From Bacilli bacterium (GTDB lineage Bacteria > Bacillota_I > Bacilli_A > ML615J-28 > CAG-698): 38,097 nucleotides of DNA. The position numbers were made by a program, and so were the translations under genes. Each line of letters starts with the position of its first letter. The first letter of the stretch is position 1. This document shows positions 44-19,977 of this stretch, piece by piece. The stretch spans positions 1 through 38,097 of the forward strand of contig JBFXGS010000003.1 of NCBI GenBank assembly GCA_050177775.1, read 5' to 3'. The notes beneath the pieces were generated by a model. The model worked only from the letters and a program-made list of their open reading frames with translations, did no database searches and had not been told where the DNA came from.

Positions 44-78
44 GCTTTAATACTTTAGTGTTAAAGCTTTTTATTTTT
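44..78 (+). terminator. Intrinsic terminator after the tRNA
   Basis: GCTTTAATAC-TTTA-GTGTTAAAGC stem (one G-U pair) followed by TTTTTATTTTT. Confidence 0.75.
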
Positions 79-100: not shown

Positions 101-128
101 TTGGAAAGCCAACAATATATGATATAAT
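101..128 (+). promoter_or_regulatory. Sigma-A promoter for HAD/amidase operon
   Basis: Extended -10 TGaTATAAT at 120-128; TTGGAA at 101-106. Confidence 0.55.
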
Positions 129-151: not shown

Positions 152-931
152 ATGAATATTAAAGACATTTCCTTGTTTTTATTAGATATGGATGGAACGA
201 TTTATTTTGAAAACACGTTAATTGACGGAGCAAAGGATTTCATTGAAAAACTTGTTTCTAAACAAATTCCTTATGTTTTTCTAACTAATAATTCGTCGGT
301 TAATAAAAATAATTATCTTGATAAATTAAAACGCTTAGGAATTCCTTGTGGCGAAGAAAACATCTTTTCTTCAGGAATGGCTTCTTGTCTTTATTTAAAA
401 GAAAACAGAAAGAACCAAACCGTTTATGTTGTGGGAACAAACGCTTTGAAAGACGAATTAAAAAACGCCGGAATAAAAATTGTCAATGAACAACCAAACA
501 TTGTTTTAGTTGGTTTTGATCGTGAATTGAGTTATGAAAAATTGGAAAAAGCTTGTGAGTTTATTGATGATGGGGCCGAGTTTATCGCCACTAATGCCGA
601 TGTGTTATTCCCTATCAAAAACCATCGTTACATTCCTGATTGCGCAAGCATCTGCGCAATGATAACAAATGCCACCAAAAAGGAACCTTTGTTTATCGGA
701 AAACCGAATCGTTATATGGTGGATATGGTTTCAAGGAAATACCAAATCCCAACATCAACCATGGCCGTGGTTGGGGATCGCTTATATACCGATATTGCGG
801 CTGGCATTAACGCCCAAGCCGTTACGGTTTTAGTGCTGACGGGAGAAACAACCAAAGAAATGCTTGAACAATCAGCCCTTAAACCCGATTATGTTTTTTC
901 ATCGATAAAAGATTTAGGAAAGGTTTTATAA
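152..931 (+). CDS. HAD-IIA family phosphatase (NagD/AraL-like)
   Basis: DMDGT motif I, LTNNS, FIATNAD, IGKP and VVGDRLYTDI motifs. Confidence 0.92.
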   Translation: MNIKDISLFLLDMDGTIYFENTLIDGAKDFIEKLVSKQIPYVFLTNNSSVNKNNYLDKLKRLGIPCGEENIFSSGMASCLYLKENRKNQTVYVVGTNALKDELKNAGIKIVNEQPNIVLVGFDRELSYEKLEKACEFIDDGAEFIATNADVLFPIKNHRYIPDCASICAMITNATKKEPLFIGKPNRYMVDMVSRKYQIPTSTMAVVGDRLYTDIAAGINAQAVTVLVLTGETTKEMLEQSALKPDYVFSSIKDLGKVL

Positions 932-934
932 ATT

Positions 935-2842
935 ATGAAATATTTTACACTTCTGACAATTCTTTTTTTTGGTGTTTTTTTGATTTCTTGTGATGAAAAA
1001 CGACAACCTTCCGCCGATTTAGATGTCCCCAATTTACAACTGGAATTAAGAGTCGGGGAAAGCAAAACGATCGAAACCGTTGTAAACAATGAAACAGAAG
1101 CGACAAAAGTTATTTTCTTTTCCGGAAATACCGATATCGCGACCGTTGATGAGCAAGGTAGCGTAAAGGGCATTAGTCTTGGCCAAGTTACCATCATTGT
1201 TTATTTAGAAGGCGAAGACGAAGTGTTCGATGTTAGTGTCAAAGTCATCAAAGACGTTAATCAAGAACTTACCATCATTAAAAATAAACTAGTTGAAGAA
1301 ATAGGGATTGGCTCTAGGATGAATATAATCCTGCCAACAACCGAGGGAACTTATGGTTCAACCATTAGTTGGGAATCTTCCAACCCTGAAGTTATGACAA
1401 ATGAAGGTATCATTTTTCAAAAAGAATATAACACTTACACGGATCTTACTTTTACGATTAATCTTGAAGGTCAAACGCTTGCGCATACGATTTTGTTTAC
1501 GGTCATCGGTTATGCTTACGAGATTGTTGCTGACGACTTTTTAAAGCAGTTTAGCAATTTAATCACAAGAAATTACGATAATATCAAAACGACGAATTAT
1601 GGATATCCGAATGCGGAAATAACTTGGACTTCATCCAATGAAGCTGTTTTCACAAATCTTGGTGTTTACAAAAAGCCAGCCCAAGACACGCCTTTCTTTA
1701 TTGAAGTGCAGGTTTCGTTTATTGACCAAAGTGCCAGCTATTCTTTTAAAAAAGATTTAATTGCTCAAGGCGTTACAATTTATGAAAAAACGGATGCCCT
1801 TGAAGATAAAATATTGGCGTCTTTAAATTTTGGAACCATAGTCAGCGAATCTTTGGAACTTCCGATTTTTGATGATGAATATCAAGCCACCTTAAACTGG
1901 TTTTCCAATCATGACGACATAATTACCAATACCGGAATTTTTATACCACCGATTGCTAACCAAATGGTAACCCTTAGGTGCGAGGTAACAATCGGTAAAG
2001 ACTATGATTCCTTTTCTTTGGAAATGGAAGTGGCAGGTAAAAACTATGATGAGAAATGGGAAGCAATAACGGATTTTTTAAGTTTAATTTTTCAAGATCA
2101 AATAAAAACCCAGCGTTATACGATGTACGGAGCCACCTCCTATACCGCTTATAATTATGGATATTTGCCGTTTTATTCAGAACACAGATCGATTATCCTA
2201 GACGGAATGGTTCCACTCGTTGATCGACCCGGAACAATCAAGACCCAGACCAAATGGATTGTCATTCATGATACCGCCAACACCAATGAGGGTGCGGATG
2301 CCGAAATGCACACGCGCTATATTCGCAGCAAACCGGGAGTGTCTTGGCATTATTCCATTGATGACGAAGAAACTTATCAACATATCCCCAATGAAGAGGT
2401 CGCTTATCATGCGGGAGCAAAAGAAGGTAATAACTATGGAATCGGGATTGAAACTTGTTTAAACTACGGCATCGATTACAACGTGGTCATGCGTAAAACC
2501 GCCAAACTGACAGCGGAATTGTTAGTCGAGTTTGATTTGGGCATTTATAATGTTCGCCAACATAATTATTATTCGGGAAAAGATTGTCCGCATGTCATGC
2601 GTTCAGCCAATCGCTGGGATGAATTTTTAATGCTTGTCGCCATGGAATACTTTGCCTTAACCAATCTTCAAGACGTTTCATTTGTGTGGGAGTCCCTTTC
2701 ACCGGAAACTTTAGATAATACCGGGAAAATAATTTCTCAAAACGGCAGTGAAACCGAAGTTAGTTATCAAGTCTTGGTAACCTATAATAACGAAACCAGA
2801 ACTTTTAACCACACTTCCACATTGTTAGCAAAATCATGGTAA
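935..2842 (+). CDS. Lipoprotein N-acetylmuramoyl-L-alanine amidase (Amidase_2) with Big_2-like domain and Ig-like repeats
   Basis: Lipobox LISC; Big_2-like FSGNTDIATVDEQG; three W-x-S-x-N/H repeats; amidase motifs IVIHDTAN, SWHYSIDD, EVAYHAG, IGIETC, QH..SGKDCP; C-terminal Ig half-repeat. Confidence 0.88.
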   Translation: MKYFTLLTILFFGVFLISCDEKRQPSADLDVPNLQLELRVGESKTIETVVNNETEATKVIFFSGNTDIATVDEQGSVKGISLGQVTIIVYLEGEDEVFDVSVKVIKDVNQELTIIKNKLVEEIGIGSRMNIILPTTEGTYGSTISWESSNPEVMTNEGIIFQKEYNTYTDLTFTINLEGQTLAHTILFTVIGYAYEIVADDFLKQFSNLITRNYDNIKTTNYGYPNAEITWTSSNEAVFTNLGVYKKPAQDTPFFIEVQVSFIDQSASYSFKKDLIAQGVTIYEKTDALEDKILASLNFGTIVSESLELPIFDDEYQATLNWFSNHDDIITNTGIFIPPIANQMVTLRCEVTIGKDYDSFSLEMEVAGKNYDEKWEAITDFLSLIFQDQIKTQRYTMYGATSYTAYNYGYLPFYSEHRSIILDGMVPLVDRPGTIKTQTKWIVIHDTANTNEGADAEMHTRYIRSKPGVSWHYSIDDEETYQHIPNEEVAYHAGAKEGNNYGIGIETCLNYGIDYNVVMRKTAKLTAELLVEFDLGIYNVRQHNYYSGKDCPHVMRSANRWDEFLMLVAMEYFALTNLQDVSFVWESLSPETLDNTGKIISQNGSETEVSYQVLVTYNNETRTFNHTSTLLAKSW

Positions 2843-2850
2843 GGAAAAAA

Positions 2851-4812
2851 ATGAATAAAATAAAAACAATCATGAAACTCTTGTTTCTTATATTGATTGC
2901 CAATGTTTTAATTGGTTGTCAAGAAGAAAACGAACCATCAAAACTTGATCATTTAGAAACTTGGGTATTAGAATTATACGAAAACAAATTAATCGACAGT
3001 GATGTAACGTTCCCTTTGACAGCGGATTTATCGGGGTCAACCTTAACATGGGAAACCAGCCATCCCGACGTTTTAACCGCGGAAGGAGTTTATCTAGCTC
3101 CCAGCGAAGATACCGAAGTGGTCTTAACTTGCACCATCGCCATCGACGGAAAGCAGAAAGTTATTAATATACCGGTCCTTGTGAAAGAAAAAGATGAACC
3201 GATTGTTGAACCAACGAAACTGGAGCAATTAGAAGCTTGGGTTTGGTCTTTATACAACAACAAGCTTATTGATGAAAATCAGAATTTTCCGATTACTTCC
3301 GATGCGCTTGGCGGAACCATCAAATGGCAATCATTTGATCAAGAAATACTAACATCAAAGGGGATTTACACGGCCCCCGTCGTTGATACGAACATTGAAC
3401 TTGTTTGTACAATTAGTGTTGACGAAGATCAAAAAATGCTTTTCATCCCCGTTGTCGTTAAAGGCTCTGGCACTCCGCTTGATGCAATAAGTATTTATCT
3501 CAATCATTTGATTGATGTCGAGGTCGTCAACAACGTTTATCTTCCCCAAACCCACCCCGATTATCCGTGTTCCATTGTTTGGGAATCATCCCGTCTGGAT
3601 ATTCTAGACAATCAAGGTAATTTCATAAAACCGCAAACCGATATTTCTTTTTCTTTAAAATATACCATTTACTATCAAGAACAAACCAAAACCGAAACAT
3701 TGGCCATGGTTGCGAAAGGATTGACCGATTTACAAAGAGCCCATGAAGTATTAACGGCCTTTGATCGCCAATACGAAGGCATTAAAGAAGTAACTTCCGA
3801 TCTTAACTTAGATCAAGCCACCGACCAACACCAGGCCACTCTTTTGTGGGAATCATCCAACCCCAGCGTGATATCTTCACTTGGAGAGTATCACGCGCCT
3901 TTGTATGACCAAAATGTTCGTTTAACTTTAACTGTAAAAGTAGGAAATGCTCAAGTGTCTTCAACCTATCAATGGGTTGTAAAAGGGGGATTGGCTTTGA
4001 ATAAGTGGGACCAAATAACACAATTTTTACATGCCATTTCCAAACCGGAAATCAACACCATTAACCAATTTTATTTGTTTGGTTCCGAGGCGGGTTATGA
4101 ACGAGTTAATTCCCAAAACATTGGTTACTTGCCTTTCTATGATGAAGAACCGATGACCATCATTCAAGAAATCGTCCCGATGACGAATTTAAATATTCGT
4201 CCCGGTCGTAATCGTACAGAAACAAAATTCATTGTCATTCACAATACGGGAATGGCGGCACCAACAGCGACCGCCAAACAACTAAGTAAAGCCATTCAAA
4301 ACTCAACCAGACAAGCCTCTTGGCATTTCTCGATTGATGATAAAGAAACTTATCAACAATTAGGAATTAATGAAGTTGGTTGGCATGCGGGCGAATCCAA
4401 TGGCAATAATTATGGAATCGGAATTGAATCTTGTGTTTATCAAGGTGTTGATTTCAACCAAGTCTTGAGGAGACTGGCGAAGTTAACAGCCAAGCTTTTA
4501 ATTGATTTTGATTTAGGGTTTGAAGCCATCAAACAACATTTTGACTTTAGCGGGAAAAATTGTCCGCAAGTGATCAGGGAAGCCAACCGCTGGGATGAAT
4601 TCCTTGATTTGGTGCAAATTGAATATTTTGCGCAAACGCAATTAAAAGATGTCAACTTTGTGTGGGAATCATTAACGCCCGTTGTGTTGGATAATGAAGG
4701 AAAGGTCATACATCATCCCGGAACCAAAACAAAAGTATCTTATCGAGTCAGCGTTACTTACAATAACGAAACACGAACATTTGACTTTGAATCAATGCTT
4801 AATAACTTATAG
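2851..4812 (+). CDS. Lipoprotein N-acetylmuramoyl-L-alanine amidase with four Ig-like repeats; paralog of upstream gene
   Basis: Lipobox LIGC; four ~90-aa repeats; IVIHNTG, SWHFSIDD, EVGWHAG, QH..SGKNCP. Start placed at ATG 2851 after AAGGA. Confidence 0.88.
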   Translation: MNKIKTIMKLLFLILIANVLIGCQEENEPSKLDHLETWVLELYENKLIDSDVTFPLTADLSGSTLTWETSHPDVLTAEGVYLAPSEDTEVVLTCTIAIDGKQKVINIPVLVKEKDEPIVEPTKLEQLEAWVWSLYNNKLIDENQNFPITSDALGGTIKWQSFDQEILTSKGIYTAPVVDTNIELVCTISVDEDQKMLFIPVVVKGSGTPLDAISIYLNHLIDVEVVNNVYLPQTHPDYPCSIVWESSRLDILDNQGNFIKPQTDISFSLKYTIYYQEQTKTETLAMVAKGLTDLQRAHEVLTAFDRQYEGIKEVTSDLNLDQATDQHQATLLWESSNPSVISSLGEYHAPLYDQNVRLTLTVKVGNAQVSSTYQWVVKGGLALNKWDQITQFLHAISKPEINTINQFYLFGSEAGYERVNSQNIGYLPFYDEEPMTIIQEIVPMTNLNIRPGRNRTETKFIVIHNTGMAAPTATAKQLSKAIQNSTRQASWHFSIDDKETYQQLGINEVGWHAGESNGNNYGIGIESCVYQGVDFNQVLRRLAKLTAKLLIDFDLGFEAIKQHFDFSGKNCPQVIREANRWDEFLDLVQIEYFAQTQLKDVNFVWESLTPVVLDNEGKVIHHPGTKTKVSYRVSVTYNNETRTFDFESMLNNL

Positions 4813-4813
4813 A

Positions 4814-4841
4814 AAGAGAAAGCCAAAAGCTTTCTTTTTTT
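4814..4841 (+). terminator. Intrinsic terminator after amidase operon
   Basis: AAGAGAAAGC-CAAAA-GCTTTCTTTT stem followed by a T-run. Confidence 0.75.
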
Positions 4842-4842
4842 G

Positions 4843-4907
4843 TGAAATCGTTTTAAAAATGTAATCGTTTTTTAATTATATCTTTTCTTATTGATAAGTG
4901 CTAAAAT
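4843..4907 (+). promoter_or_regulatory. Hydrogenase promoter region: tandem TGWAATCGTTTT boxes and extended -10
   Basis: TGAAATCGTTTT (4843-4854), TGTAATCGTTTT (4860-4871), TGcTAAAAT (4899-4907). Confidence 0.45.
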
Positions 4908-4929
4908 GCCATTGAGAAGAGGTGGTAAT

Positions 4930-5421
4930 ATGCCTATCAAATTCGAAATGAGTCCTTGTCAAATCGAAGAGCTTAAAGCCCAAATGGCCAAGCATAAGCA
5001 AAAACCAGGACCCTTAATGCCAACTCTGCATGATGCCCAACATATCTTTGGGTGTATTCCGCTGGCGGTTCAAAAAATTATTTCGGAAGAATTAAATGAA
5101 CCAATCGCTAAAATAAACGGTGTGGTGAGCTTTTACTCCCATTTTACCGTCGAACCAAAAGGGAAACACATTATTAATGTTTGTTTAGGGACAGCATGCT
5201 ACGTTCGAGGTTCACAAGACATCATCAACACACTTTCCGATTTGTTACAAATTAAACCGGGAGAAACAACCGTTGATGGGAAGTTCACATTAGCAGCAAA
5301 CCGCTGTATTGGGGCATGTGGACTGGCTCCGGTTTTTACGGTTGACGGGAAAGTTTACGGAACGGCGAACACAAAAGTTGCTCAAAATGCCATTGCGAGC
5401 ATTTTGAAAGCGCAAAGTTAA
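4930..5421 (+). CDS. hndA: [FeFe]-hydrogenase NuoE-like 2Fe-2S subunit (HndA/HydC)
   Basis: VCLGTACYVRG and RCIGACGLAP 2Fe-2S motifs; ATG 4930 follows SD GAGGTG. Confidence 0.9.
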   Translation: MPIKFEMSPCQIEELKAQMAKHKQKPGPLMPTLHDAQHIFGCIPLAVQKIISEELNEPIAKINGVVSFYSHFTVEPKGKHIINVCLGTACYVRGSQDIINTLSDLLQIKPGETTVDGKFTLAANRCIGACGLAPVFTVDGKVYGTANTKVAQNAIASILKAQS

Positions 5422-5431
5422 GGAAACAATT

Positions 5432-5818
5432 ATGACCAAAACGCAACTTTTAAAAATCAGGGAACAAGCCTCCCTAAAATTACGGATGGCCAATATTCCC
5501 AACGCCTATCGGATTGCTATTGGGATGGCAACTTGTGGATTAACAGCGGGCTCCCAACCCGTTTATGATGAATTTATAAGCGAAGTAGCAAAACGCAACT
5601 TGAAAAATGTTTTTGTGGTGTCGGTTGGTTGTGTCGGAGAATGTGCCCTTGAACCGCTTGTTGAGGTTTTTGATAACAAAGGTTTTACTACCACATATTG
5701 CAAAGTAAAACCGCTGGATGTTGAAAGAATTATTGACAGCCATATTATCCAAGGCTTTGTTTTAGAAGATTTATTAATCGATAAATACAAGAAAATAGGT
5801 GGCAGCAATGAGTATTAA
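5432..5818 (+). CDS. hndB: Thioredoxin-like 2Fe-2S ferredoxin subunit (HndB/HydD)
   Basis: IGMATCG..AG, VGCVGECALEP, VERIIDSHI; lies between hndA and hndC. Confidence 0.85.
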   Translation: MTKTQLLKIREQASLKLRMANIPNAYRIAIGMATCGLTAGSQPVYDEFISEVAKRNLKNVFVVSVGCVGECALEPLVEVFDNKGFTTTYCKVKPLDVERIIDSHIIQGFVLEDLLIDKYKKIGGSNEY

Positions 5819-7601
5819 ATATCAAGTCATTGTATGTAACGGTAGTCATTGTTCTTCGTCAAATTCGCAAGGACTGTTTGATGAATTTAAAAAAACGCTA
5901 TTTGAATTAGATTTAGATACATCCGTTAACTTGTTTATGGGCGGATGTTTAGGCTTTTGTGATCAGGGCCCCGTTGTTATTGTTTATCCTGATTCAACGC
6001 TTTACACTCATGTTACGGTTGAAGCCGTTGACCAAATTTGCGTTGAGCATTTATTGAATGGCAACATTGTTAATTCTTTAACTTGCCACGAAATAACGCC
6101 GGAAATGCATGCCAAGATTCAAAAGTTTCGGGAAGCTCATTTATATACCCACCAAGAACGAATTGCCTTAAGAAATTGTGGCATCATTAATCCCGAAGAC
6201 ATTGAAGAATATATTGCTCGTGATGGCTATTTAGCCCTTGCGAAAGCATTAACAGAAATGACTCCGGATGACGTCATTGAAGAAATTAAAAAGTCCAAAT
6301 TACGCGGACGTGGTGGGGGCGGATTTCCGACCGGATTAAAATGGAGTTTAGCGGCTCGCAATAAAGGTGGGCAACACTACTTAATTTGCAACGCCGACGA
6401 AGGCGACCCCGGAGCGTTTATGGATCGTGCTGTTTTAGAGGGGGACCCATTCAGCGTCATCGAAGCCATGACCATTGCCGGTTATGCGATTTCTGCATCC
6501 CAAGGTTATATTTATGTTCGTGCCGAATATCCTTTAGCCGTTGACCGCGTTAATAAGGCCATTAAAGCAGCTTATGAAGTGGGTTTGCTAGGGAATAATA
6601 TATTAGAAAGCGGCTTTAGTTTTGACTTGGAAACAAGACTGGGAGCGGGAGCTTTTGTGTGCGGTGAAGAAACCGCTTTGATGGCTTCGATTGAAGGTGA
6701 ACGGGGAATTCCGCGAAACAAGCCACCTTTTCCCGCTGATGCCGGATTATGGAAAAGACCAACAATTATCAACAATGTGGAAACTTTCGCAAACATTGCG
6801 CCGATAATTATGAAAGGCGCGGATTGGTTTAACACCATCGGTACCGAAAAATCCCGCGGAACCAAAGTGTTTGCTTTAGGCGGAAAGATTAACAACACCG
6901 GTTTACTGGAAATTCCGATGGGAACAACTTTGCGCGAAGTCATTTTCAATATCGGAGGAGGAATCCCCAATGATAGAGCTTTTAAAGCCGTGCAAACGGG
7001 AGGACCTTCGGGAGGATGCTTAACGTCCAAACACTTAGACACGCCCATTGAATACGATACGCTGGTTAATCTCGGTTCCATGATGGGAAGTGGTGGCATG
7101 ATTGTCATGGATGAAACCAACTGCATGGTGGATGTTGCTCGCTTCTTTTTAGAGTTTACCGTTGATGAATCATGTGGAAAATGCACCCCTTGTCGTGAAG
7201 GGACCAAACGCATGCTGGAATTATTGCAAAAAATAACGAAGGGAAAAGCCGGTTTAGAAGATTTGCAAATGTTAGAAAATCTGGCTAATTCCATCAAAGA
7301 CTCCGCTCTTTGCGGTTTAGGGCAAACAGCACCCAACCCGGTTTTATCTACTTTAAACAATTTCCGAGACGAATATTTAGCTCATGTTCTCGATAAAAAG
7401 TGTCCAGCCGGCGTTTGTAAAGACTTAATAAAATATTATGTTACCGAAAAATGTATTGGTTGCGGCCGTTGCAAACGCAATTGTCCGGCCGGAGCGATTG
7501 CTGGCGACATTAAAAAAATTCATGTTATTGATCATAATATTTGTATCAAATGTGGTGCATGCAAGATTTCTTGCCCTGTTGGCGCCATTATCACAGCTTA
7601 G
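5808..7601 (+). CDS. hndC: NuoF-like flavin/NAD(P)-binding hydrogenase subunit (HndC/HydB)
   Basis: LRGRGGGGFPTG, NADEGDPGAFMDR, GAGAFVCGEET, GGPSGG, ESCGKCTPCREG, C-terminal 2x[4Fe-4S]. Confidence 0.93.
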   Translation: MSIKYQVIVCNGSHCSSSNSQGLFDEFKKTLFELDLDTSVNLFMGGCLGFCDQGPVVIVYPDSTLYTHVTVEAVDQICVEHLLNGNIVNSLTCHEITPEMHAKIQKFREAHLYTHQERIALRNCGIINPEDIEEYIARDGYLALAKALTEMTPDDVIEEIKKSKLRGRGGGGFPTGLKWSLAARNKGGQHYLICNADEGDPGAFMDRAVLEGDPFSVIEAMTIAGYAISASQGYIYVRAEYPLAVDRVNKAIKAAYEVGLLGNNILESGFSFDLETRLGAGAFVCGEETALMASIEGERGIPRNKPPFPADAGLWKRPTIINNVETFANIAPIIMKGADWFNTIGTEKSRGTKVFALGGKINNTGLLEIPMGTTLREVIFNIGGGIPNDRAFKAVQTGGPSGGCLTSKHLDTPIEYDTLVNLGSMMGSGGMIVMDETNCMVDVARFFLEFTVDESCGKCTPCREGTKRMLELLQKITKGKAGLEDLQMLENLANSIKDSALCGLGQTAPNPVLSTLNNFRDEYLAHVLDKKCPAGVCKDLIKYYVTEKCIGCGRCKRNCPAGAIAGDIKKIHVIDHNICIKCGACKISCPVGAIITA

Positions 7602-7610
7602 GAGTCAACC

Positions 7611-9389
7611 ATGAATTTTGTGAAAATTAAAATAAATAATGAAATATTAGAATGTCCAAGCGATTGGACGATTATGCAAGCCGCCAATTCGGTCAACATT
7701 GATATTCCTCGATTGTGTTTTTTGAAGGATATAAATGAAACTTCGGCTTGTCGAATTTGCGTTGTTGAAATCGACGGAATTAAAGGCTTAAAAAACTCCT
7801 GTACGGTAAAAGTTTTTGATGGTATGAAAGTAAAAACCAACACCCAACGAGTAAAAAAAGCGATACGCAACAATCTTGAATTGTTAGCAGCCAATCATCG
7901 TTTTGAATGTTGGCGTTGTCCAAGAGAACACAATTGTGAGTTTTTACATTTGCTCAGACGTTACAATGTTCCCAATGATATCGGCGAAGATTTGTTTTAT
8001 GAAAAAAAATCGATTGTCAGCAATATAACGGATGCCTTGGTCATTGATAGTTCAAAATGTGTTTTATGCGGGCGTTGTATATCGGCTTGTGAAAAAGTGG
8101 CTGGAACATCCGTTCTCAATTATAACAACCGCGGTTTTGTTACTTTCGTTGGTCCGGCCATGAACCATCAAATGGATGATGCCGGTTGTATTTATTGTGG
8201 AAAATGCATCCAGTACTGCCCGACCGGAGCGATTAGAGAAAAAGAAGACGTGGATTTAGTCCTTGATCTTATCGATGACGAACAGCACTTTGTAGTCGCA
8301 CAAACCGCCCCCGGCGTCAGAGCCGCTTTAGGCGAAGAATTCGGATTTGAGATTGGCACAAATGTTGAAGGAAAAATGTTCCGAGCACTCAACGATTTGG
8401 GATTTAACGATATTACCGATACTAACTTTGCGGCTGATGTTACGATTATTGAAGAAGGCCATGAATTTATTGACCGTTTAAATAAACACTTTGCCAACGA
8501 ACCAACTTATTTACCAATGTTTACATCTTGCTCACCGGGATGGATTCGCTATATTGAAATATATTATCCCGAATTACTTAAACATTTATCTAGTTGTAAA
8601 TCACCTCAACAAATGCAAGGAGCTTTAATAAAACATTATTACGCGAAAAAGCTAGGGATTCCTGTGGAAAAGATTCGCGTTGTGTCCATCATGCCTTGTA
8701 TTGCGAAAAAAGCGGAAGCCAAACTTCCCCAAATGGAAGCCAATGGTATCCGCGATGTTGATTTTGTTTTGACTACCAGAGAATTAGCGCGCATGATAAA
8801 GCGCCGAGGAATAGATTTTAAAAATCTTGAACCACTGACTCCAACCAGCCCGTTAGCTTCTTATACCGGAGCGGGAGTAATATTTGGAGCAACTGGAGGT
8901 GTCATGGAAGCGGCGCTAAGGACCGTTAAAGAAAAGCTTGAAAACAAGCCCGTTGACTTAAATGCTTTTGCTGATTTGCGTGGCGTAAATGACGGAATCA
9001 AAGAAATGGAAGTCGAAGTTGCGGGGTTAAAGCTGACGGTTGCGGTTGTTCATGGTGTTAAAAATGTTCCTACTATGTTAAAGCGAGTTAGTGAAAATCC
9101 TGGTAAGTATGCTTTCATCGAAATAATGGCTTGCACGGGGGGCTGTGTAAACGGTGGCGGGCAACCAATCATCAATGCATACAAACTAGATCAAATTGAT
9201 GTTCGTGAAGAAAGAGCGAAAGCCCTATATAATATTGACTCGCATCTGGCAACCCGAAAATCACATGAAAATAAAGAAGTTCAAATATTATATGATACTT
9301 TCTTGGAAAAACCGGGAAGCCATATTGCTCATCAATTATTACATACAACTTATGATGCTCGTACTTTATATGAAAATAAGTCCCATTAA
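7611..9389 (+). CDS. hndD: [FeFe]-hydrogenase catalytic subunit, group A3 (HndD/HydA)
   Basis: N-terminal 2Fe-2S, His-ligated and 2x[4Fe-4S] domains; H-cluster motifs FTSCSPGW, MPCIAKKAE, EIMACTGGCVNGGGQP; C-terminal SHENK..HQLLHTTY. Confidence 0.95.
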   Translation: MNFVKIKINNEILECPSDWTIMQAANSVNIDIPRLCFLKDINETSACRICVVEIDGIKGLKNSCTVKVFDGMKVKTNTQRVKKAIRNNLELLAANHRFECWRCPREHNCEFLHLLRRYNVPNDIGEDLFYEKKSIVSNITDALVIDSSKCVLCGRCISACEKVAGTSVLNYNNRGFVTFVGPAMNHQMDDAGCIYCGKCIQYCPTGAIREKEDVDLVLDLIDDEQHFVVAQTAPGVRAALGEEFGFEIGTNVEGKMFRALNDLGFNDITDTNFAADVTIIEEGHEFIDRLNKHFANEPTYLPMFTSCSPGWIRYIEIYYPELLKHLSSCKSPQQMQGALIKHYYAKKLGIPVEKIRVVSIMPCIAKKAEAKLPQMEANGIRDVDFVLTTRELARMIKRRGIDFKNLEPLTPTSPLASYTGAGVIFGATGGVMEAALRTVKEKLENKPVDLNAFADLRGVNDGIKEMEVEVAGLKLTVAVVHGVKNVPTMLKRVSENPGKYAFIEIMACTGGCVNGGGQPIINAYKLDQIDVREERAKALYNIDSHLATRKSHENKEVQILYDTFLEKPGSHIAHQLLHTTYDARTLYENKSH

Positions 9390-9982
9390 AAGGGACTTAT
9401 TTCTTTGAGAGTAATCGAGTATAAGTCATAGTCAATTAAACCTGCGGCTTTTAACTTTTGTAATTCTCGGGACAAAGAAGGTCTTGGAATGTTTAAGTAT
9501 TGAGCCAACCGTTCTTTACTCTTTATCAAAACAACCGGATTTTGGTTTTCTTTCACAATTAAATTTAAATAAAACATAATCTTGTTGCGGATGGAAGTTT
9601 GGGAGATTATTTTCAATTTATTTTGTAATAACAAATGATTATTTCCTAATAGTTTTAAAAAATTTTCCAGAAATAAGCTATCTGTTTGGAATAATTCTAA
9701 TAACTTTGATTTGTTAATATAAGCTATTTCCGTATCCGAACAAGCAACAAAAGATCCTAAATAAATGGGATTGTTAGAGAATAATAAATATTCTCCGAAA
9801 CAATCATCTTTTTTTAAATGTGCAATGGTAAAACTTACCTCCGATGAATAGGTAATAATATCAATTTCCCCTTTTAAAATGACACCAAGATTTAAACAAG
9901 GCTCTCCTTCGGAAAATATGACGGTTTTAGCAGAATAAGCTTTTATGGTAAATAAAGACAAGTGTCGATTGAAAACGTTCAT
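9386..9982 (-). CDS. Crp/Fnr family transcriptional regulator, HcpR-like
   Basis: cNMP-like domain (IFSEGE, FGEYLLF); C-terminal HTH LAQYLNIPRPSLSREL. Confidence 0.88.
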   Translation of the reverse strand: MNVFNRHLSLFTIKAYSAKTVIFSEGEPCLNLGVILKGEIDIITYSSEVSFTIAHLKKDDCFGEYLLFSNNPIYLGSFVACSDTEIAYINKSKLLELFQTDSLFLENFLKLLGNNHLLLQNKLKIISQTSIRNKIMFYLNLIVKENQNPVVLIKSKERLAQYLNIPRPSLSRELQKLKAAGLIDYDLYSITLKEISPF

Positions 9983-9994
9983 ACAACCTCTCCT

Positions 9995-10037
9995 TGTAAC
10001 ATTGGTTACGGATATTTCATTATATTTTAGATATAAT
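9995..10037. promoter_or_regulatory. Crp/Fnr-type operator TGTAAC-N4-GTTACG with downstream TATAAT
   Basis: Palindrome at 9995-10010; -10 TATAAT at 10032-10037 puts the centre at about -41.5. Confidence 0.7.
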
Positions 10038-10057
10038 AAAAAGTAAAGGGGGAAAAC

Positions 10058-10999
10058 ATGAAGAAAATATTTATTTTATTGATAGTTGTGCTTTTAATTG
10101 GTTGTGAGTCAAATAAGGACTCCCTTTTAATTATGGTGCCATCAGGGATTCCTTTGATTGCTGTGGGTTCATTCTTGAAAGAAGACAACATAGAAATAAC
10201 CGATGTTAACAATCCCAGTTTACTAACGGCTGCCATGACTTCTAAAAGCCACGATATTGTTGTCGCCCCGTTAAACCTCGGAATTAAAGCTTACAACCTT
10301 GGGGATTCGTCGTATCAATTAGCCGGTATTTTAACTTTTGGAAATTCCTACATCATTACTAGAGAAACGCACCCGTTATCAAATGTTACCGATTTAGAAG
10401 GAACCAATATTTTAGCCTACGGGCAAAATAGCATCCCTGACATCGCGCTTAAAACGGTTTTACAAGATAGCAACATTAATGCGCAAATCGATTATCAAGC
10501 GAACATAAATTTGGTTGTTCCGTTTTTTATAAGTAATACCAACAATCCCAACGATGAATCAAACGCTGAATACTTGTACATTATGGCAGCAGAACCAATT
10601 ATTTCAATGCTAGAAATAAAATATCATTTAAACTTACGCTTATTAGACTTACAAGAAGAATTAAAAACGAGGATTGAACATCTTCCTCAAGCCGCGGTAT
10701 TTGTCAATTCGCGCAGTTCAAAACAAGATGAAATTTCCGAGTTTCTCAATTCATTAATAGTGGCAACAAATATGATTAACGAAGATCCCGAGCAATATGC
10801 AAAATCAATTTTTAACAATCATCCCTATTTTGAAAGTTTGACATTGGAAGTATTGCAAAGAAGTCTTCCCCGAAGTCAAATTGCTTTTGAAATCATAACG
10901 AGTGAATCAACACTTATTCACAACTATTATCAATTTATGATGAATTATGATGCGCAAATGACCGGAAATGCACTTTTGGATCAAGGATTCTATCGGTGA
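10058..10999 (+). CDS. NitT/TauT-family ABC transporter substrate-binding lipoprotein
   Basis: Lipobox LIGC; VPSGIP, DIVVAPLN, GQNSIPD, AEP and PQAAVFV motifs of SsuA/TauA-like binding proteins. Confidence 0.75.
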   Translation: MKKIFILLIVVLLIGCESNKDSLLIMVPSGIPLIAVGSFLKEDNIEITDVNNPSLLTAAMTSKSHDIVVAPLNLGIKAYNLGDSSYQLAGILTFGNSYIITRETHPLSNVTDLEGTNILAYGQNSIPDIALKTVLQDSNINAQIDYQANINLVVPFFISNTNNPNDESNAEYLYIMAAEPIISMLEIKYHLNLRLLDLQEELKTRIEHLPQAAVFVNSRSSKQDEISEFLNSLIVATNMINEDPEQYAKSIFNNHPYFESLTLEVLQRSLPRSQIAFEIITSESTLIHNYYQFMMNYDAQMTGNALLDQGFYR

Positions 11000-11727
11000 T
11001 GAAAACAACCAAAGGTTATTTTTTAAGTGGTTTATTGTTGCTATTTATAATATGGATTGTCAGCTCGATGTTTGTACAAAACGACTTGGTTATTCCAAGT
11101 TTCCAAGCGGTGGTAAAAGCCTTTCAAAAGATGGTGCTTGCTAAAACCACCTGGATGTCGCTAGGAAACACATTATTTAATTTGGTATTGGCCATTTTGA
11201 TTTGTTTTATCATCGCTTTAATATTAAGCCTTTTGGTCATTAACATTAAGCCCCTTGAAGTGTTTCTTAGTCCTCTTTTTGCTGTTCTAAGAACGGTTCC
11301 GATTATTGCCGTAATTGTTGTTCTTTTAATTGTGTTTGGTAACCAAAAGAGTCCGAGTTTAATTACAGGATTTGTGTTATTACCCATTCTATATGAACAA
11401 TATTTAACAACTTTTAAAACGACGCAACCGGCCCTGATTGATGATTTGAGTTTGCTTGGAGCAAGCAAATGGCAAACATTAATGTATGTCTATTTTCCGT
11501 TATCCAAACCGGTAATAACGTCCAGCCTCATCCAAGCTTTAGGTTTAGGTCTAAAAGCAATGGTCATGGCGGAATTTATAGCTCAACCGAAAAACACGGT
11601 TGGTTATCAAATAATGCAAAGTGTTACAACGCTTGACACGGCTTCGGTTTTTGCTTGGACAATCATCTTAATCATCTTCGTATTGTTTGGCGAAGGAACA
11701 ATTAAAAAAATAAGGATTGAGAAATGA
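10996..11727 (+). CDS. NitT/TauT-family ABC transporter permease
   Basis: About 6 TM segments; LRTVPIIA; EAA-like loop LLGASKWQTLMYVYFP; LKAMVMAEF. Confidence 0.85.
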   Translation: MMKTTKGYFLSGLLLLFIIWIVSSMFVQNDLVIPSFQAVVKAFQKMVLAKTTWMSLGNTLFNLVLAILICFIIALILSLLVINIKPLEVFLSPLFAVLRTVPIIAVIVVLLIVFGNQKSPSLITGFVLLPILYEQYLTTFKTTQPALIDDLSLLGASKWQTLMYVYFPLSKPVITSSLIQALGLGLKAMVMAEFIAQPKNTVGYQIMQSVTTLDTASVFAWTIILIIFVLFGEGTIKKIRIEK

Positions 11728-11746
11728 TAATTTTTCGTCCTTTTTT

Positions 11747-11775
11747 TTGACACCCTGCCATTTTTATGGTAAAAT
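11747..11775 (+). promoter_or_regulatory. Sigma-A promoter with overlapping near-palindrome TGACA-CCC-TGCCA (candidate TetR operator)
   Basis: TTGACA-17 bp-TAAAAT with TG extension. Confidence 0.65.
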
Positions 11776-11799
11776 AACTAAAAATAAAAGGGGGATACC

Positions 11800-12420
11800 A
11801 TGGGAATAATGACCTTTAAAAACCTCAAAAAAGATAAAAGACAAAGAATTCTTGCTGCCGCTTTTGAAGAGTTTTCCCCGCCGCCATGGGAACAAATCTT
11901 GGTATCACAAGTGGTTTTAAAAGCCCAAAGTCCACGAGGAAGTTTTTACCAATATTTTGATACTCTTTTTGATTTGTTTTTTGTTTTACTTGTTTCTTTG
12001 TTCGGAAGAAAACTCCCCCTTTTTAATGTTTTCTTAAGCGAAGCTAATTTTGATTTAAAGCAAGCTTTAAAAGGGCGATTTGCACGAATCATAAATCAAC
12101 TTGAGATTTATAGCAGCGGATACTTGCTAAGAAATTTACTTTATTTTAAAACAAATCGCCCTAAAGAAGTTTTAATGCTTGCCATTGATCCCAGCTTTGA
12201 CGATGATGTGATGGAAAGCATTTTGAAAAACATCAAAAAACCATCACCTTTTTTACTAAAAAACCTTGAAAAACATTTTGAACTTTGTTATTTAGGTTAC
12301 TTAGAAAAACCACAAGAAAAAGACAAGATTATTTTATATTTTAATCAAATATTGGATTTGCTATTAGAAAAAGAAGAAATAACAAGGAGAAAAAATGAAG
12401 TCATTATTAAAAATATATAA
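11800..12420 (+). CDS. TetR/AcrR family regulator (divergent HTH)
   Basis: TFKNL...KRQRILAAAFEEF...PRGSFYQYF. Confidence 0.8.
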   Translation: MGIMTFKNLKKDKRQRILAAAFEEFSPPPWEQILVSQVVLKAQSPRGSFYQYFDTLFDLFFVLLVSLFGRKLPLFNVFLSEANFDLKQALKGRFARIINQLEIYSSGYLLRNLLYFKTNRPKEVLMLAIDPSFDDDVMESILKNIKKPSPFLLKNLEKHFELCYLGYLEKPQEKDKIILYFNQILDLLLEKEEITRRKNEVIIKNI

Positions 12421-17818: not shown

Positions 17819-17842
17819 AAAAAGGCTTTTCAGCCTTTTTTT
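17817..17842. terminator. Bidirectional intrinsic terminator between convergent genes
   Basis: AAAAAAAGGCT-TTTC-AGCCTTTTTTT. Confidence 0.85.
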
Positions 17843-19925
17843 ATTCAATCACATATAAGACATTTCTTGTAAAACCCAAGAACGTCGCAAGAGGATATTT
17901 GTAATAAACCGCTTTTAAATTTGGATCGTTGGTGATGACAAACGTTTCTTGGCCGATGATTTCATATCCGCGAACAACAATTAAGTGTCCGTTGGTTGTA
18001 TAAAGACCGGTGTTCCCCTTGATGCTAACGGCAACAGGACCAACATTTACTAAATGATATCTTAATTCATCCCAGGAATATATCTTCTTCACATAACTTG
18101 TTTCGCCATAGGAACTTATACCGACGGTGTTAAAAACCCAATTTCCGTAAATGTTATTTCCATAATCTTTAAAAAGAGGTGAGGTTTCTTGATGGGGAAG
18201 CGGGTTGGAAAACTGATGTCCATAATACATTAGCAGCATTGTGGAAGAAGTAACACTGCAAATCGAACCGCCGATGGTCGGGACATCGTGTTGGTATAGT
18301 TTCGGAACATCATAATCAACGAAATTAGGTAAGTTGGTCGTATCAACGGAATAAACATAATCAGGGATAGTTAAGGTCGCACCCACCAACCAAAGTTTTG
18401 GAGATGTTGAAGTTAAACTATTACGTCTTAACGTTATTTGAAATTGGAAAGCATTAGCTTGATTAGAATTGTTGATGATAATTTCATCATCATTCATGGA
18501 AGCAACGCCGCCATTTTGGTCAAACATGGCGTTTTGGCGACCAAAACCCCACGCACTATAAGATAGATAATTGCTCCAAACATCATTAACACGAACTCTA
18601 ATTTTTAATTCAACGGTCGCTTCTTGGCTACTTAGGGCCGACCAAGAGCCAACCAACCTTGTGAAAGGACTGGTTGAAATGATATTCGATTGATATGTTC
18701 CGGCGATACTTGTGTTTTTTAACACTACTTTATCGTTTTCAATTGTTAAATCCGGATGATTACTAATCAAAAAGTCACTTAAGCGGTGGGTATACATATG
18801 GGAACTAAAGTGTGTTTCACTCGGGTTTATGGCTTTTGTGGTAACAGTAAATTGTTTTTCCATTTTGTTTTCTCCTATCATTAAAGTAGCCGTTAAAGTA
18901 ACAACATGGGCTGTTTCACTTAATGAAACAACTCCGGAAGAATTGATAATTTGGGGGTGACTTGATGACCAAGAAGCGGTTACTTCATAAGCAAAGGTCA
19001 CTTGCAATTCTAAATTTTGTTCAACTGTTGCCGGCAAAGACAGGGTAGAAGCAGCCATTTGTAATCGCTCTTCCGAAGTGTAAGTTAATACTTTGATATG
19101 GTAGTAATCTTCAACGAATAGATTTTGATAACTAAAGACCGCCGTTAGAATCACATCCGTATCCTTGGGACGATATTTCCATTCGCCTTTGTTTGTGAAA
19201 ACATCGGGTTGATCCGAAAACCAAGCAATGGTAACACCATCAATGTTTTTAGGAAGATTGATATCGGTGTTGGTTGTTGAAGGCAGGGAAATCTGAGATT
19301 GAGCTCGCTCGATGGCATCTTCGGGACTGATTGCAAGAACCATAATTTCCTTAAAAGGGAAAGAAAGAGGGCTAGAATTAATAACCGTCGATATTGACAA
19401 AAAAACAGCAGTATCCGTGCTCGGAAGGTTTACGACACCCTGGCTTGATAAGATATCGGGTAAAGAACTAGTCCAAGTAAGAGGAATGTTAATTTGATCT
19501 ATTTCTATTGAATTAGGTAATGATACATCAATATTAGTAGTATTTGGAATTGTTAGCTGTTGTTTTATTAGTTCAATTAAATCTTCTTCTTCCCAAGCCG
19601 AAACTTTAATTATTCCAAAATCAATGATTGTGTTTTCATCTTGATAAGTAATAACCGCCTGAATGTGGGCTTGTTTTTCAGATAAACCCGGATAAACCCT
19701 CCCGGAAGTATCAATTGCCTGTTCATTATCAGATTGCCAAGATAAGGCCACAGTCGCTTTCGATAATGTTAATTGGGTTGGGAACGTTAAATCTTGAGTA
19801 GTTGAACCAGGAAAAGCAATAGTTGTTTGGATTTCTTCAACTAAACTTTCCATTGAAGGTTGATTTGTGCAACCACTGAAATAAAATATTCCTAAAAAAA
19901 AGACAAGATAGATATGTTTTTTCAT
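17841..19925 (-). CDS. Lipoprotein with Ig-like repeats and C-terminal C39-like cysteine peptidase
   Basis: Lipobox FSGC; four W-x-S-x-x-P/E...G repeats; VPKLYQ..ICSVTSSTMLL, GHLIVVRGY, TNDP (Cys-His-Asp triad). Confidence 0.82.
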   Translation of the reverse strand: MKKHIYLVFFLGIFYFSGCTNQPSMESLVEEIQTTIAFPGSTTQDLTFPTQLTLSKATVALSWQSDNEQAIDTSGRVYPGLSEKQAHIQAVITYQDENTIIDFGIIKVSAWEEEDLIELIKQQLTIPNTTNIDVSLPNSIEIDQINIPLTWTSSLPDILSSQGVVNLPSTDTAVFLSISTVINSSPLSFPFKEIMVLAISPEDAIERAQSQISLPSTTNTDINLPKNIDGVTIAWFSDQPDVFTNKGEWKYRPKDTDVILTAVFSYQNLFVEDYYHIKVLTYTSEERLQMAASTLSLPATVEQNLELQVTFAYEVTASWSSSHPQIINSSGVVSLSETAHVVTLTATLMIGENKMEKQFTVTTKAINPSETHFSSHMYTHRLSDFLISNHPDLTIENDKVVLKNTSIAGTYQSNIISTSPFTRLVGSWSALSSQEATVELKIRVRVNDVWSNYLSYSAWGFGRQNAMFDQNGGVASMNDDEIIINNSNQANAFQFQITLRRNSLTSTSPKLWLVGATLTIPDYVYSVDTTNLPNFVDYDVPKLYQHDVPTIGGSICSVTSSTMLLMYYGHQFSNPLPHQETSPLFKDYGNNIYGNWVFNTVGISSYGETSYVKKIYSWDELRYHLVNVGPVAVSIKGNTGLYTTNGHLIVVRGYEIIGQETFVITNDPNLKAVYYKYPLATFLGFTRNVLYVIE

Positions 19926-19977
19926 TAAAATCACCTTATAAAAATTATAGCATAGATTTATCTATTAACTTTTTATT

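Follow-up and report, generated by a model that had tools for sequence, protein, structure and literature searches.

The closest described relatives of the proteins considered here are the prophage endolysins and autolysins of the XlyA, CwlA and PlyL type from Bacillus, which are soluble, carry a wall-binding domain, have a holin as partner and act on the wall of the cell that produces them. A second point of comparison is the murQ-murR-murP-amiE-nagZ-namZ operon of Bacillus subtilis, in which, as described in the part of the source covered here, secreted NagZ, AmiE and NamZ digest peptidoglycan sequentially to monomers for import and processing by MurQ (PMC8054146). In this work we have studied a group of three genes found at the beginning of a 38,097-nucleotide (nt) stretch of DNA, hereafter the window, from a bacterium of the class Bacilli. 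Its three forward-strand open reading frames (ORFs), closely packed between positions 152 and 4812, encode a HAD phosphatase and two paralogous lipoproteins that we call Ami1 and Ami2. Ami1 has the catalytic fold and the zinc, glutamate and lysine residues of the XlyA-type enzymes. Unlike them, Ami1 and Ami2 are predicted to be lipid-anchored, bear four N-terminal and one C-terminal immunoglobulin (Ig)-like units and belong to a host that looks wall-less. Our best reading, which we consider probable, is that these enzymes harvest the peptidoglycan of other cells.

The two lipoproteins are built on the same plan. Ami1 (935-2842, forward strand, 635 amino acids (aa)) contains, according to Pfam, a Big_2 domain (aa 38-90), three aBig_2 stretches and an Amidase_2 domain (aa 438-553, nt 2246-2593; 71.5 bits for a cut-off of 26), and Ami2 (2836-4812, forward strand, 658 aa), with which it shares 34% identity, contains four aBig_2 stretches and an Amidase_2 domain (aa 461-577, nt 4216-4566; 63.9 bits for the same cut-off). 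A pattern search finds in both a signal peptide that ends in a lipobox cysteine (C19 and C28); this cysteine is invariant in 20/20 aligned homologues and the genome encodes Lgt (PF01790, 215 bits, contig C12), which together mark the two proteins as predicted bacterial lipoproteins. Equally invariant in the 20 homologues are H445, E506, H543, K549 and C551 of Ami1, which align with the catalytic residues of XlyA, that is, with its His/His/Cys zinc ligands and its catalytic Glu and Lys. Among solved structures, the best sequence match of the amidase is the catalytic domain of B. subtilis XlyA (E 4e-28, 37% identity), followed by PlyL and PlyG. By score and residues, Ami1 and Ami2 can be assigned to the XlyA-type Amidase_2 family (PF01510), and cleavage between N-acetylmuramic acid (MurNAc) and L-alanine is the predicted reaction.

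An AlphaFold2 model of Ami1 (pLDDT 87.7) shows first the Big_2 unit (aa 28-105) and then, in order, three aBig_2 units of helix-plus-sheet build (aa 108-366), a conserved linker (aa 371-436), the amidase (aa 441-577 in the model, otherwise given as aa 438-577) and an additional C-terminal Ig-like unit (aa 582-630) that has a homologous counterpart in Ami2. The modelled amidase superimposes on XlyA (3rdr/3hmb) with a TM-score of 0.89-0.90, normalised to the XlyA chain length, and a root-mean-square deviation of 1.5-1.7 Å, and on PlyL with a TM-score of 0.80-0.81, indicating that it would adopt the T7-lysozyme/PGRP-like fold. The rest of its structural matches consist of Ig-like domains in a row, cadherins and S-layer proteins among them. 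By our estimate, the stalk formed by the four N-terminal units is perhaps some 15 nm long.

Much of this had been anticipated. The original prediction, made from the bare sequence, described two paralogous lipoproteins, each with four Ig-like units and an Amidase_2 domain with intact His/His/Cys ligands and a conserved Glu, devoid of LysM, SH3 or other peptidoglycan-binding domains and with no phage gene nearby. The profile scan that it proposed matched Amidase_2, Big_2 and aBig_2, and the Pfam domains, the lipoboxes, the identity of the two paralogues and the alignment with XlyA all agree with this description. Neither LysM, SH3 nor any other wall-binding family was matched in Ami1 or Ami2 at E<=0.1, and a Pfam scan of 21 further ORFs of the window showed no phage-type family. 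Only the C-terminal Ig-like unit had been left off the domain list. We have therefore discarded a phage endolysin as the identity of Ami1 and Ami2, given the missing wall-binding family, the lack of phage neighbours in the Pfam scan and a chromosomal gene order that is conserved in four congeners.

Whose wall these enzymes would act upon depends on the host. The window corresponds to contig C3 of a 1.39-Mb genome in 137 contigs (84% complete, 0.5% contaminated; G000 in our set), and we compared it with five assemblies of the same genus (80-94% complete), 19 of the same family and 16 of the sister family, 41 genomes in all. The same contig bears a ribosomal-protein operon, and the order HAD gene, Ami1, Ami2 and NuoE/NuoF-type hydrogenase genes is kept in congeners from other assemblies (four examined); hence the amidase genes are not a binning artefact. 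Three profiles served as markers of wall synthesis: MraY (PF00953), the transpeptidase domain of penicillin-binding proteins (PBPs; PF00905) and FtsW/RodA of the SEDS family (PF01098). None of them has a match in the genome of the window or in its five congeners. The three share an identical distribution, since all are present in 24/41 genomes and all are missing from the same 17, which are the six of the genus and 11 further relatives. In walled relatives these markers are spread over at least three different contigs, so their joint absence from six assemblies is not plausibly a matter of incompleteness. Also, the genome of the window has only two Mur_ligase_M matches, FolC (316.9 bits, adjoining valS) and a truncated PgsB, and no MurC-F was found. 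The host thus looks wall-less from its gene content, and the production of its own peptidoglycan, which an autolysin would need, does not appear to be encoded. The nearest named database records are labelled Tenericutes or Bacilli and, further off, Acholeplasmataceae or Acholeplasmatales bacterium, with one evidently mislabelled 'Bacteroidales', and for this section of the Bacilli the covered parts of two publications (PMC10868615, PMC7301438) already report families with and without walls side by side. The suggestion of a wall-less, Acholeplasmatales-like host, and the search for mraY and PBP genes that was to check it, have in this way found support in all six genomes of the genus.

The two amidases belong to a larger set of surface proteins. 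Of 1386 crude ORFs in the genome, 70 are lipoprotein candidates by pattern; we scanned 51 proteins with Pfam, namely the 47 candidates of at least 280 aa encoded outside the window, two lipoproteins of the window and the two pieces of a split gene on contig C42. The genome has five Amidase_2 genes, the scan having revealed three further stalked Amidase_2 lipoproteins besides Ami1 and Ami2. Other lipoproteins carry CHAP with Big_2, NlpC/P60 with SH3_6 and aBig_2, SpoIID with three Big_2 stretches, or GHL10; SpoIID is present in 16/41 genomes, and as a lipoprotein in 6/6 of the genus. The window itself encodes a further stalked surface hydrolase (17841-19934, reverse strand), a lipoprotein of 697 aa in which two aBig_2 stretches are combined with a Peptidase_C39_2 domain at the C terminus. 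Two more lipoproteins had been missed by the pattern: a Big_2-NamZ exo-beta-N-acetylmuramidase (C54:6222-7778; 285.9 and 168.9 bits) and a GH3 enzyme (C16:7588-9309; 307.5 bits), whose gene adjoins an Opp-type ATP-binding cassette (ABC) importer, a peptidase M3 and an MFS_2 transporter. Judging from these genes, the genome would encode exported NagZ (GH3) and NamZ, as in the B. subtilis-type pathway. NamZ is found in 35/41 genomes, and in 16 of the 17 that are wall-less.

The pathway for the resulting sugars is best seen in the congeners. NagA is present in the genome of the window, and MurQ scores above its curated cut-off in 4/5 congeners, that of the fifth being truncated at a contig end, and in 32/41 relatives. 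One congener (G005; C51, L078) has a cluster with MurQ, AnmK, a BadF-type kinase, a GH3-MupG fusion, an alpha/beta hydrolase, an FAD-linked lactate-dehydrogenase-like oxidase, the electron-transferring flavoprotein EtfAB, a 1303-aa lipoprotein and an 805-aa Amidase_2 lipoprotein. The oxidase and EtfAB lie directly next to MurQ/AnmK there (positions 7031-12091 of that contig) and in the equivalent cluster of a second congener (L080, G002:C26), which is headed by NamZ and an 872-aa GH3-MupG fusion. MurQ releases D-lactate, and the dehydrogenase and Etf genes therefore fit a complete use of MurNAc; the D-lactate may be coupled through this oxidase and EtfAB to electron-bifurcating metabolism.

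Conservation of sequence points in the same direction. Comparing the genome of the window with three wall-less congeners, the nonsynonymous (pN) and synonymous (pS) differences are 0.087-0.094 and 0.65-0.85 (saturated) for the amidase domain of Ami1, 0.22-0.31 and 0.68-0.76 for its stalk, and 0.04-0.13 and 0.67-0.75 for NuoF. In wall-less species, strong purifying selection keeps the catalytic domain as constrained as NuoF, a neighbouring hydrogenase subunit, and the stalk evolves faster; this speaks against the amidases being relics.

From these elements we infer the following scheme. Ami1 and Ami2 would be active N-acetylmuramoyl-L-alanine amidases facing outward, tethered to the membrane by their lipid anchor and presented to foreign peptidoglycan by the four-Ig stalk. 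Since the bacterium seems to make no peptidoglycan, the substrate would be that of other cells, either as debris or as exposed Gram-positive walls. The amidases would remove the stem peptides from the glycan strands; the SpoIID-type lytic transglycosylase, the GH3 beta-N-acetylglucosaminidase and the Big_2-NamZ exo-muramidase would then reduce the denuded glycan to N-acetylglucosamine (GlcNAc), MurNAc or anhydro-MurNAc (anhMurNAc), while the CHAP and NlpC/P60 enzymes would cleave the peptides. Sugars and peptides would be taken up by the Opp-type importer and the major facilitator superfamily (MFS) transporter, AnmK or another kinase, MurQ and NagA would route the sugars into glycolysis, and the FAD-lactate dehydrogenase with EtfAB would oxidise the D-lactate derived from MurQ. 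A nutritional purpose would give sense to the whole. The claim that the substrate is foreign peptidoglycan, as originally put forward, gains in this way from the wall genes missing in the genus, the presence of salvage genes and the constraint on the catalytic domain.

Several observations nevertheless weigh against a harvesting role. Some concern the salvage route, because NagB (PF01182) has no match in the genome of the window, and MurQ, AnmK, the BadF-type kinase, MupG and the lactate dehydrogenase/Etf genes of the congeners have no tblastn match in this 84%-complete assembly. Given that the latter genes cluster together in congeners, their absence could be explained by a single unassembled contig, which is an assumption of ours. 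The search for salvage genes proposed at the outset has accordingly been successful in part, yielding nagA, NamZ, GH3 and the Opp-type importer in this genome and murQ, anmK and mupG in congeners, and failing to find murQ and nagB in the genome itself. Others concern the amidases. In one congener (G003; L091, C16:4142-4381) all that is left of Ami2 is ~80 aa from its C-terminal part; in another (G005; L090, C9:1038-2911) Ami1 matches in two pieces, because of a possible frameshift or an assembly error; and the fifth Amidase_2 gene of the genome of the window (L068, C42:9634-11598) has one in-frame TAA inside a Big_2 unit. The two resulting ORFs, 9634-10158 and 10162-11598, share one frame, and the split may reflect a pseudogene or a sequencing error. 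Single amidase copies are therefore dispensable. Also, walled relatives have stalked amidases just as frequently, in many cases arranged in arrays, and the HAD-amidase pair occurs in walled genera too; from this it follows that the genes predate wall loss, and they could have begun as autolysins. One walled genome (G006; L092, C2:1945-3806) has the HAD gene followed by an orthologue of Ami2 that is a lipoprotein without a stalk, of 316 aa, made of linker, amidase and C-terminal unit, and this is its only Amidase_2 match. Finally, one wall-less genome (G020) has no amidase; it has neither NamZ nor MurQ.

The comparative figures call for the same caution, as they are Amidase_2 matches and not gene counts, and come from relatives that are not independent, so that the contrasts are descriptive only: the 17 wall-less genomes have 119 matches (mean 7.0) and the 24 walled ones 166 (mean 6.9), while the 35 genomes with NamZ have 273 (mean 7.8) and the six without it, all of them also without MurQ, have 12 (1, 6, 3, 0, 1 and 1; mean 2.0). 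Leaving kinship aside, the number of amidases tracks the catabolic genes NamZ and MurQ and not the possession of a wall. In a step beyond the original prediction, the harvesting of peptidoglycan thus seems to extend to the entire order, including its walled members; the loss of the wall took away the only self-target.

The alternative that fares best, unlikely as we find it, is a contact-dependent weapon whose main role would be the lysis of living Gram-positive neighbours and the release of their contents, the sugars of peptidoglycan being a by-product. Wall hydrolases do no harm to a wall-less cell that makes them, and the lysis of Gram-positive cells from outside by related domains of the XlyA/PlyL type is general knowledge; Big_2 stalks also carry SNase, 5'-nucleotidase and HtrA-type proteases, which would be suited to harvest cytoplasmic contents, and Anaeroplasma of the rumen is called bacteriolytic in the covered part of one source (PMC8941964). 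Yet a cluster dedicated to the catabolism of MurNAc and anhMurNAc adjoins an amidase gene in a congener, which suggests that the wall itself is consumed, the number of amidases follows NamZ and MurQ, and Ami1 and Ami2 show no wall-targeting domain. Living prey and dead debris are two things that sequence cannot tell apart.

It is considerably less probable that we are looking at inherited autolysin genes, kept from walled ancestors and now employed otherwise, for instance as adhesins, in the binding of muropeptides or on another amide substrate. The orthologous HAD-amidase pairs and the stalked amidases of walled relatives, and the loss of single copies described above, are what such a history would produce. 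It is at odds with the invariance of the catalytic residues, with a catalytic domain that, compared between wall-less species, is more constrained than the rest of the protein, and with the retention of five to fifteen Amidase_2 matches per wall-less genome together with NamZ in 16/17. Least probable are ordinary autolysins of a cryptic or transient wall made through genes missing from the drafts or by some other route, for which the 84% completeness of the assembly and the precedent of the overlooked transient peptidoglycan of Chlamydia, in the literature covered, can be invoked, against three unlinked markers missing in an identical pattern from 6/6 genomes of the genus and 11 relatives, all three being present in 24/24 walled relatives, and against a genome in which no MurC-F was found.

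One correction concerns the stalk, which together with the lipid anchor had been taken to point the enzyme outward. The stalk as an adaptation to wall loss is ruled out, as stalked amidases, many of them encoded in arrays, are equally common in walled relatives. Such arrays comprise three to four consecutive Amidase_2 lipoprotein genes, some encoding proteins of 1100-1200 aa (L084, G011:C106; L085, G015:C6; L086, G021:C2; L087, G008:C16), and that of G011 lies directly upstream of the same hydrogenase genes. Neither is the stalk specific to amidases: Big_2 or aBig_2 units are found in 22 of the 51 scanned proteins, among them solute-binding proteins, a 5'-nucleotidase and an HtrA-type protease, and because these proteins are so varied in function the Ig stalk is the general mount of the surface proteins of this organism. 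The solute-binding lipoproteins (SBP_bac_1 and SBP_bac_5) with N-terminal Big_2 or Flg_new units are encoded at C2:2634-4427, C21:5359-7776 and C113:37-3087; Ig units are unusual on binding proteins and fit a general need for reach beyond the membrane. On another contig of the genome (C117:2-2385), three consecutive genes encode PgsB, cut short where the contig ends, PgsC and a 'poly-gamma-glutamate system protein', capsule genes in a genome without those for peptidoglycan. A poly-gamma-glutamate capsule could explain why so many surface lipoproteins bear Ig stalks.

The first gene of the unit (152-931, forward strand) encodes a cytoplasmic HAD-IIA phosphatase of the NagD/YutF-like kind, with 259 aa, no signal peptide and Hydrolase_6 and Hydrolase_like domains. 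It passes the cut-off of the subfamily model TIGR01460 (157 bits for 100.15) and falls below those of the equivalog models NF007762 for NagD (170.6 bits for 368) and TIGR01457 (213.1 bits for 247.65), for which reason we have not identified it with NagD, the UMP phosphatase. Its closest solved structures are Thermotoga 1vjr/1pw5, YutF (3pdw) and NagD (2c4n). Orthologues occur in 16/41 genomes, all of the same family, and in 10 of these 16, belonging to four genera of which two are walled, the gene adjoins an Amidase_2 gene. We have not taken it for an established partner in function: the hydrogenase genes, which are unrelated, have kept these neighbours as well, and the adjacency may need no other explanation than inherited gene order. 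A real functional coupling between phosphatase and amidases is possible, if rather doubtful, and that the phosphatase acts on an amino-sugar phosphate is a guess and a weak link.

The three genes lie 3 nt apart (HAD gene and Ami1) or overlap by 7 nt (Ami1 and Ami2). Upstream of them are a terminator-like hairpin (44-67, forward strand; 10-pair stem followed by a T run), which would end the preceding unit, and a sigma-70-type promoter-like site with a TG-extended -10 element (101-128, forward strand), the sole forward-strand site of its kind 5' of the HAD gene, with 10/12 hexamer matches to the consensus. A second terminator-like hairpin (4807-4845, forward strand; 17-pair stem followed by a T run) would close the unit. 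As consensus matches only, the promoter-like site and the bracketing hairpins fit a single transcription unit of three genes. Directly 3' of Ami2 (4891-9389, forward strand) there are genes for a NuoE-like protein, a small ferredoxin-like protein, a NuoF-like protein and an [FeFe]-hydrogenase large subunit, probably an electron-bifurcating hydrogenase of the HydABC type, whose order is conserved across the genus. Nearly identical DNA is found in metagenome runs of three studies, of aquatic, groundwater and landfill origin, not counting the possible source run. No RNA record with the operon is listed; one run labelled RNA-Seq gave five short Ami1/Ami2 contigs, two of them without differences, which we did not count as evidence of expression because the label is a guess and DNA may be included.

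The usual picture of wall-less bacteria is that of parasites dependent on a host. The lineage studied here is free-living, comes from landfill and groundwater, and has retained roughly the number of peptidoglycan amidase genes seen in its walled relatives, along with a route for burning wall sugars whose MurQ part is seen in the congeners. In the literature that we could cover in part, supplements excluded, we came upon no description of peptidoglycan amidases at the surface of wall-less bacteria; the word 'amidase' occurs 0 times in PMC7301438, PMC8397711, PMC10868615 and PMC4628116, again excluding supplements, and the tables of PMC10868615 may list lyt/cwl genes by family. If our reading is true, it would supply candidate enzymes for the bacteriolytic and necromass-recycling activity of anaerobic mollicutes, identify a consumer for peptidoglycan, a large and slowly degraded pool of carbon and nitrogen in anoxic habitats, and offer lipid-anchored lysins without binding domains that are open to direct expression and assay. 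It would also suggest that the loss of the wall can be an ecological gain, the freedom to bear wall hydrolases, and not only reductive decay. One can go further and propose, with little confidence, that wall loss brought immunity to hydrolases and that this immunity allowed a complete, tethered battery for dismantling peptidoglycan to be displayed permanently through a poly-gamma-glutamate capsule, for contact-dependent predation of Gram-positives in which duplicated, fast-evolving paralogues (5-15 matches per genome) determine the range of prey according to peptidoglycan chemotype. Such predation, were it real, would explain in molecular terms the 'bacteriolytic mycoplasma' phenotype, which has long been known.

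The combination of enzymes has a parallel in the engulfment machinery of sporulating Firmicutes, where an amidase, SpoIIP, likewise works alongside a lytic transglycosylase of the SpoIID type. SpoIID is known to act on glycan strands only once the amidase has stripped them. The amidase family differs, SpoIIP not being known as an Amidase_2 enzyme, and the organism studied here is non-sporulating and wall-less; the cooperation would in our case be putative. The logic of the B. subtilis operon is matched more closely, with NamZ, GH3, MurQ and AnmK encoded in the genome of the window or in its congeners. It differs in that the amidase is Amidase_2 and not AmiE, the enzymes are all lipoproteins, several of them Ig-stalked, a D-lactate dehydrogenase with Etf is attached to the congener cluster, and, with no wall there to be recycled or rebuilt, the flux would be purely catabolic. 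The scavenging of MurNAc by Tannerella forsythia, in the literature covered, is a second example of the same logic. Closer to the host, Spiroplasma carry murP and murQ, annotated for the use of MurNAc from other bacteria (PMC3762197), and the covered part of that source describes uptake and an etherase for the free sugar, and no surface depolymerases. Acholeplasma, in the covered part of another study, were the first assimilators of 13C-labelled dead Escherichia coli (PMC4628116). With the bacteriolytic Anaeroplasma of the rumen, they are wall-less relatives that lyse bacteria or take carbon from dead ones, known from these portions of the literature as phenotypes with no enzymes named. What the present locus adds, unlike those cases, is a set of candidate genes, and it does so in an uncultured lineage of landfill and groundwater.

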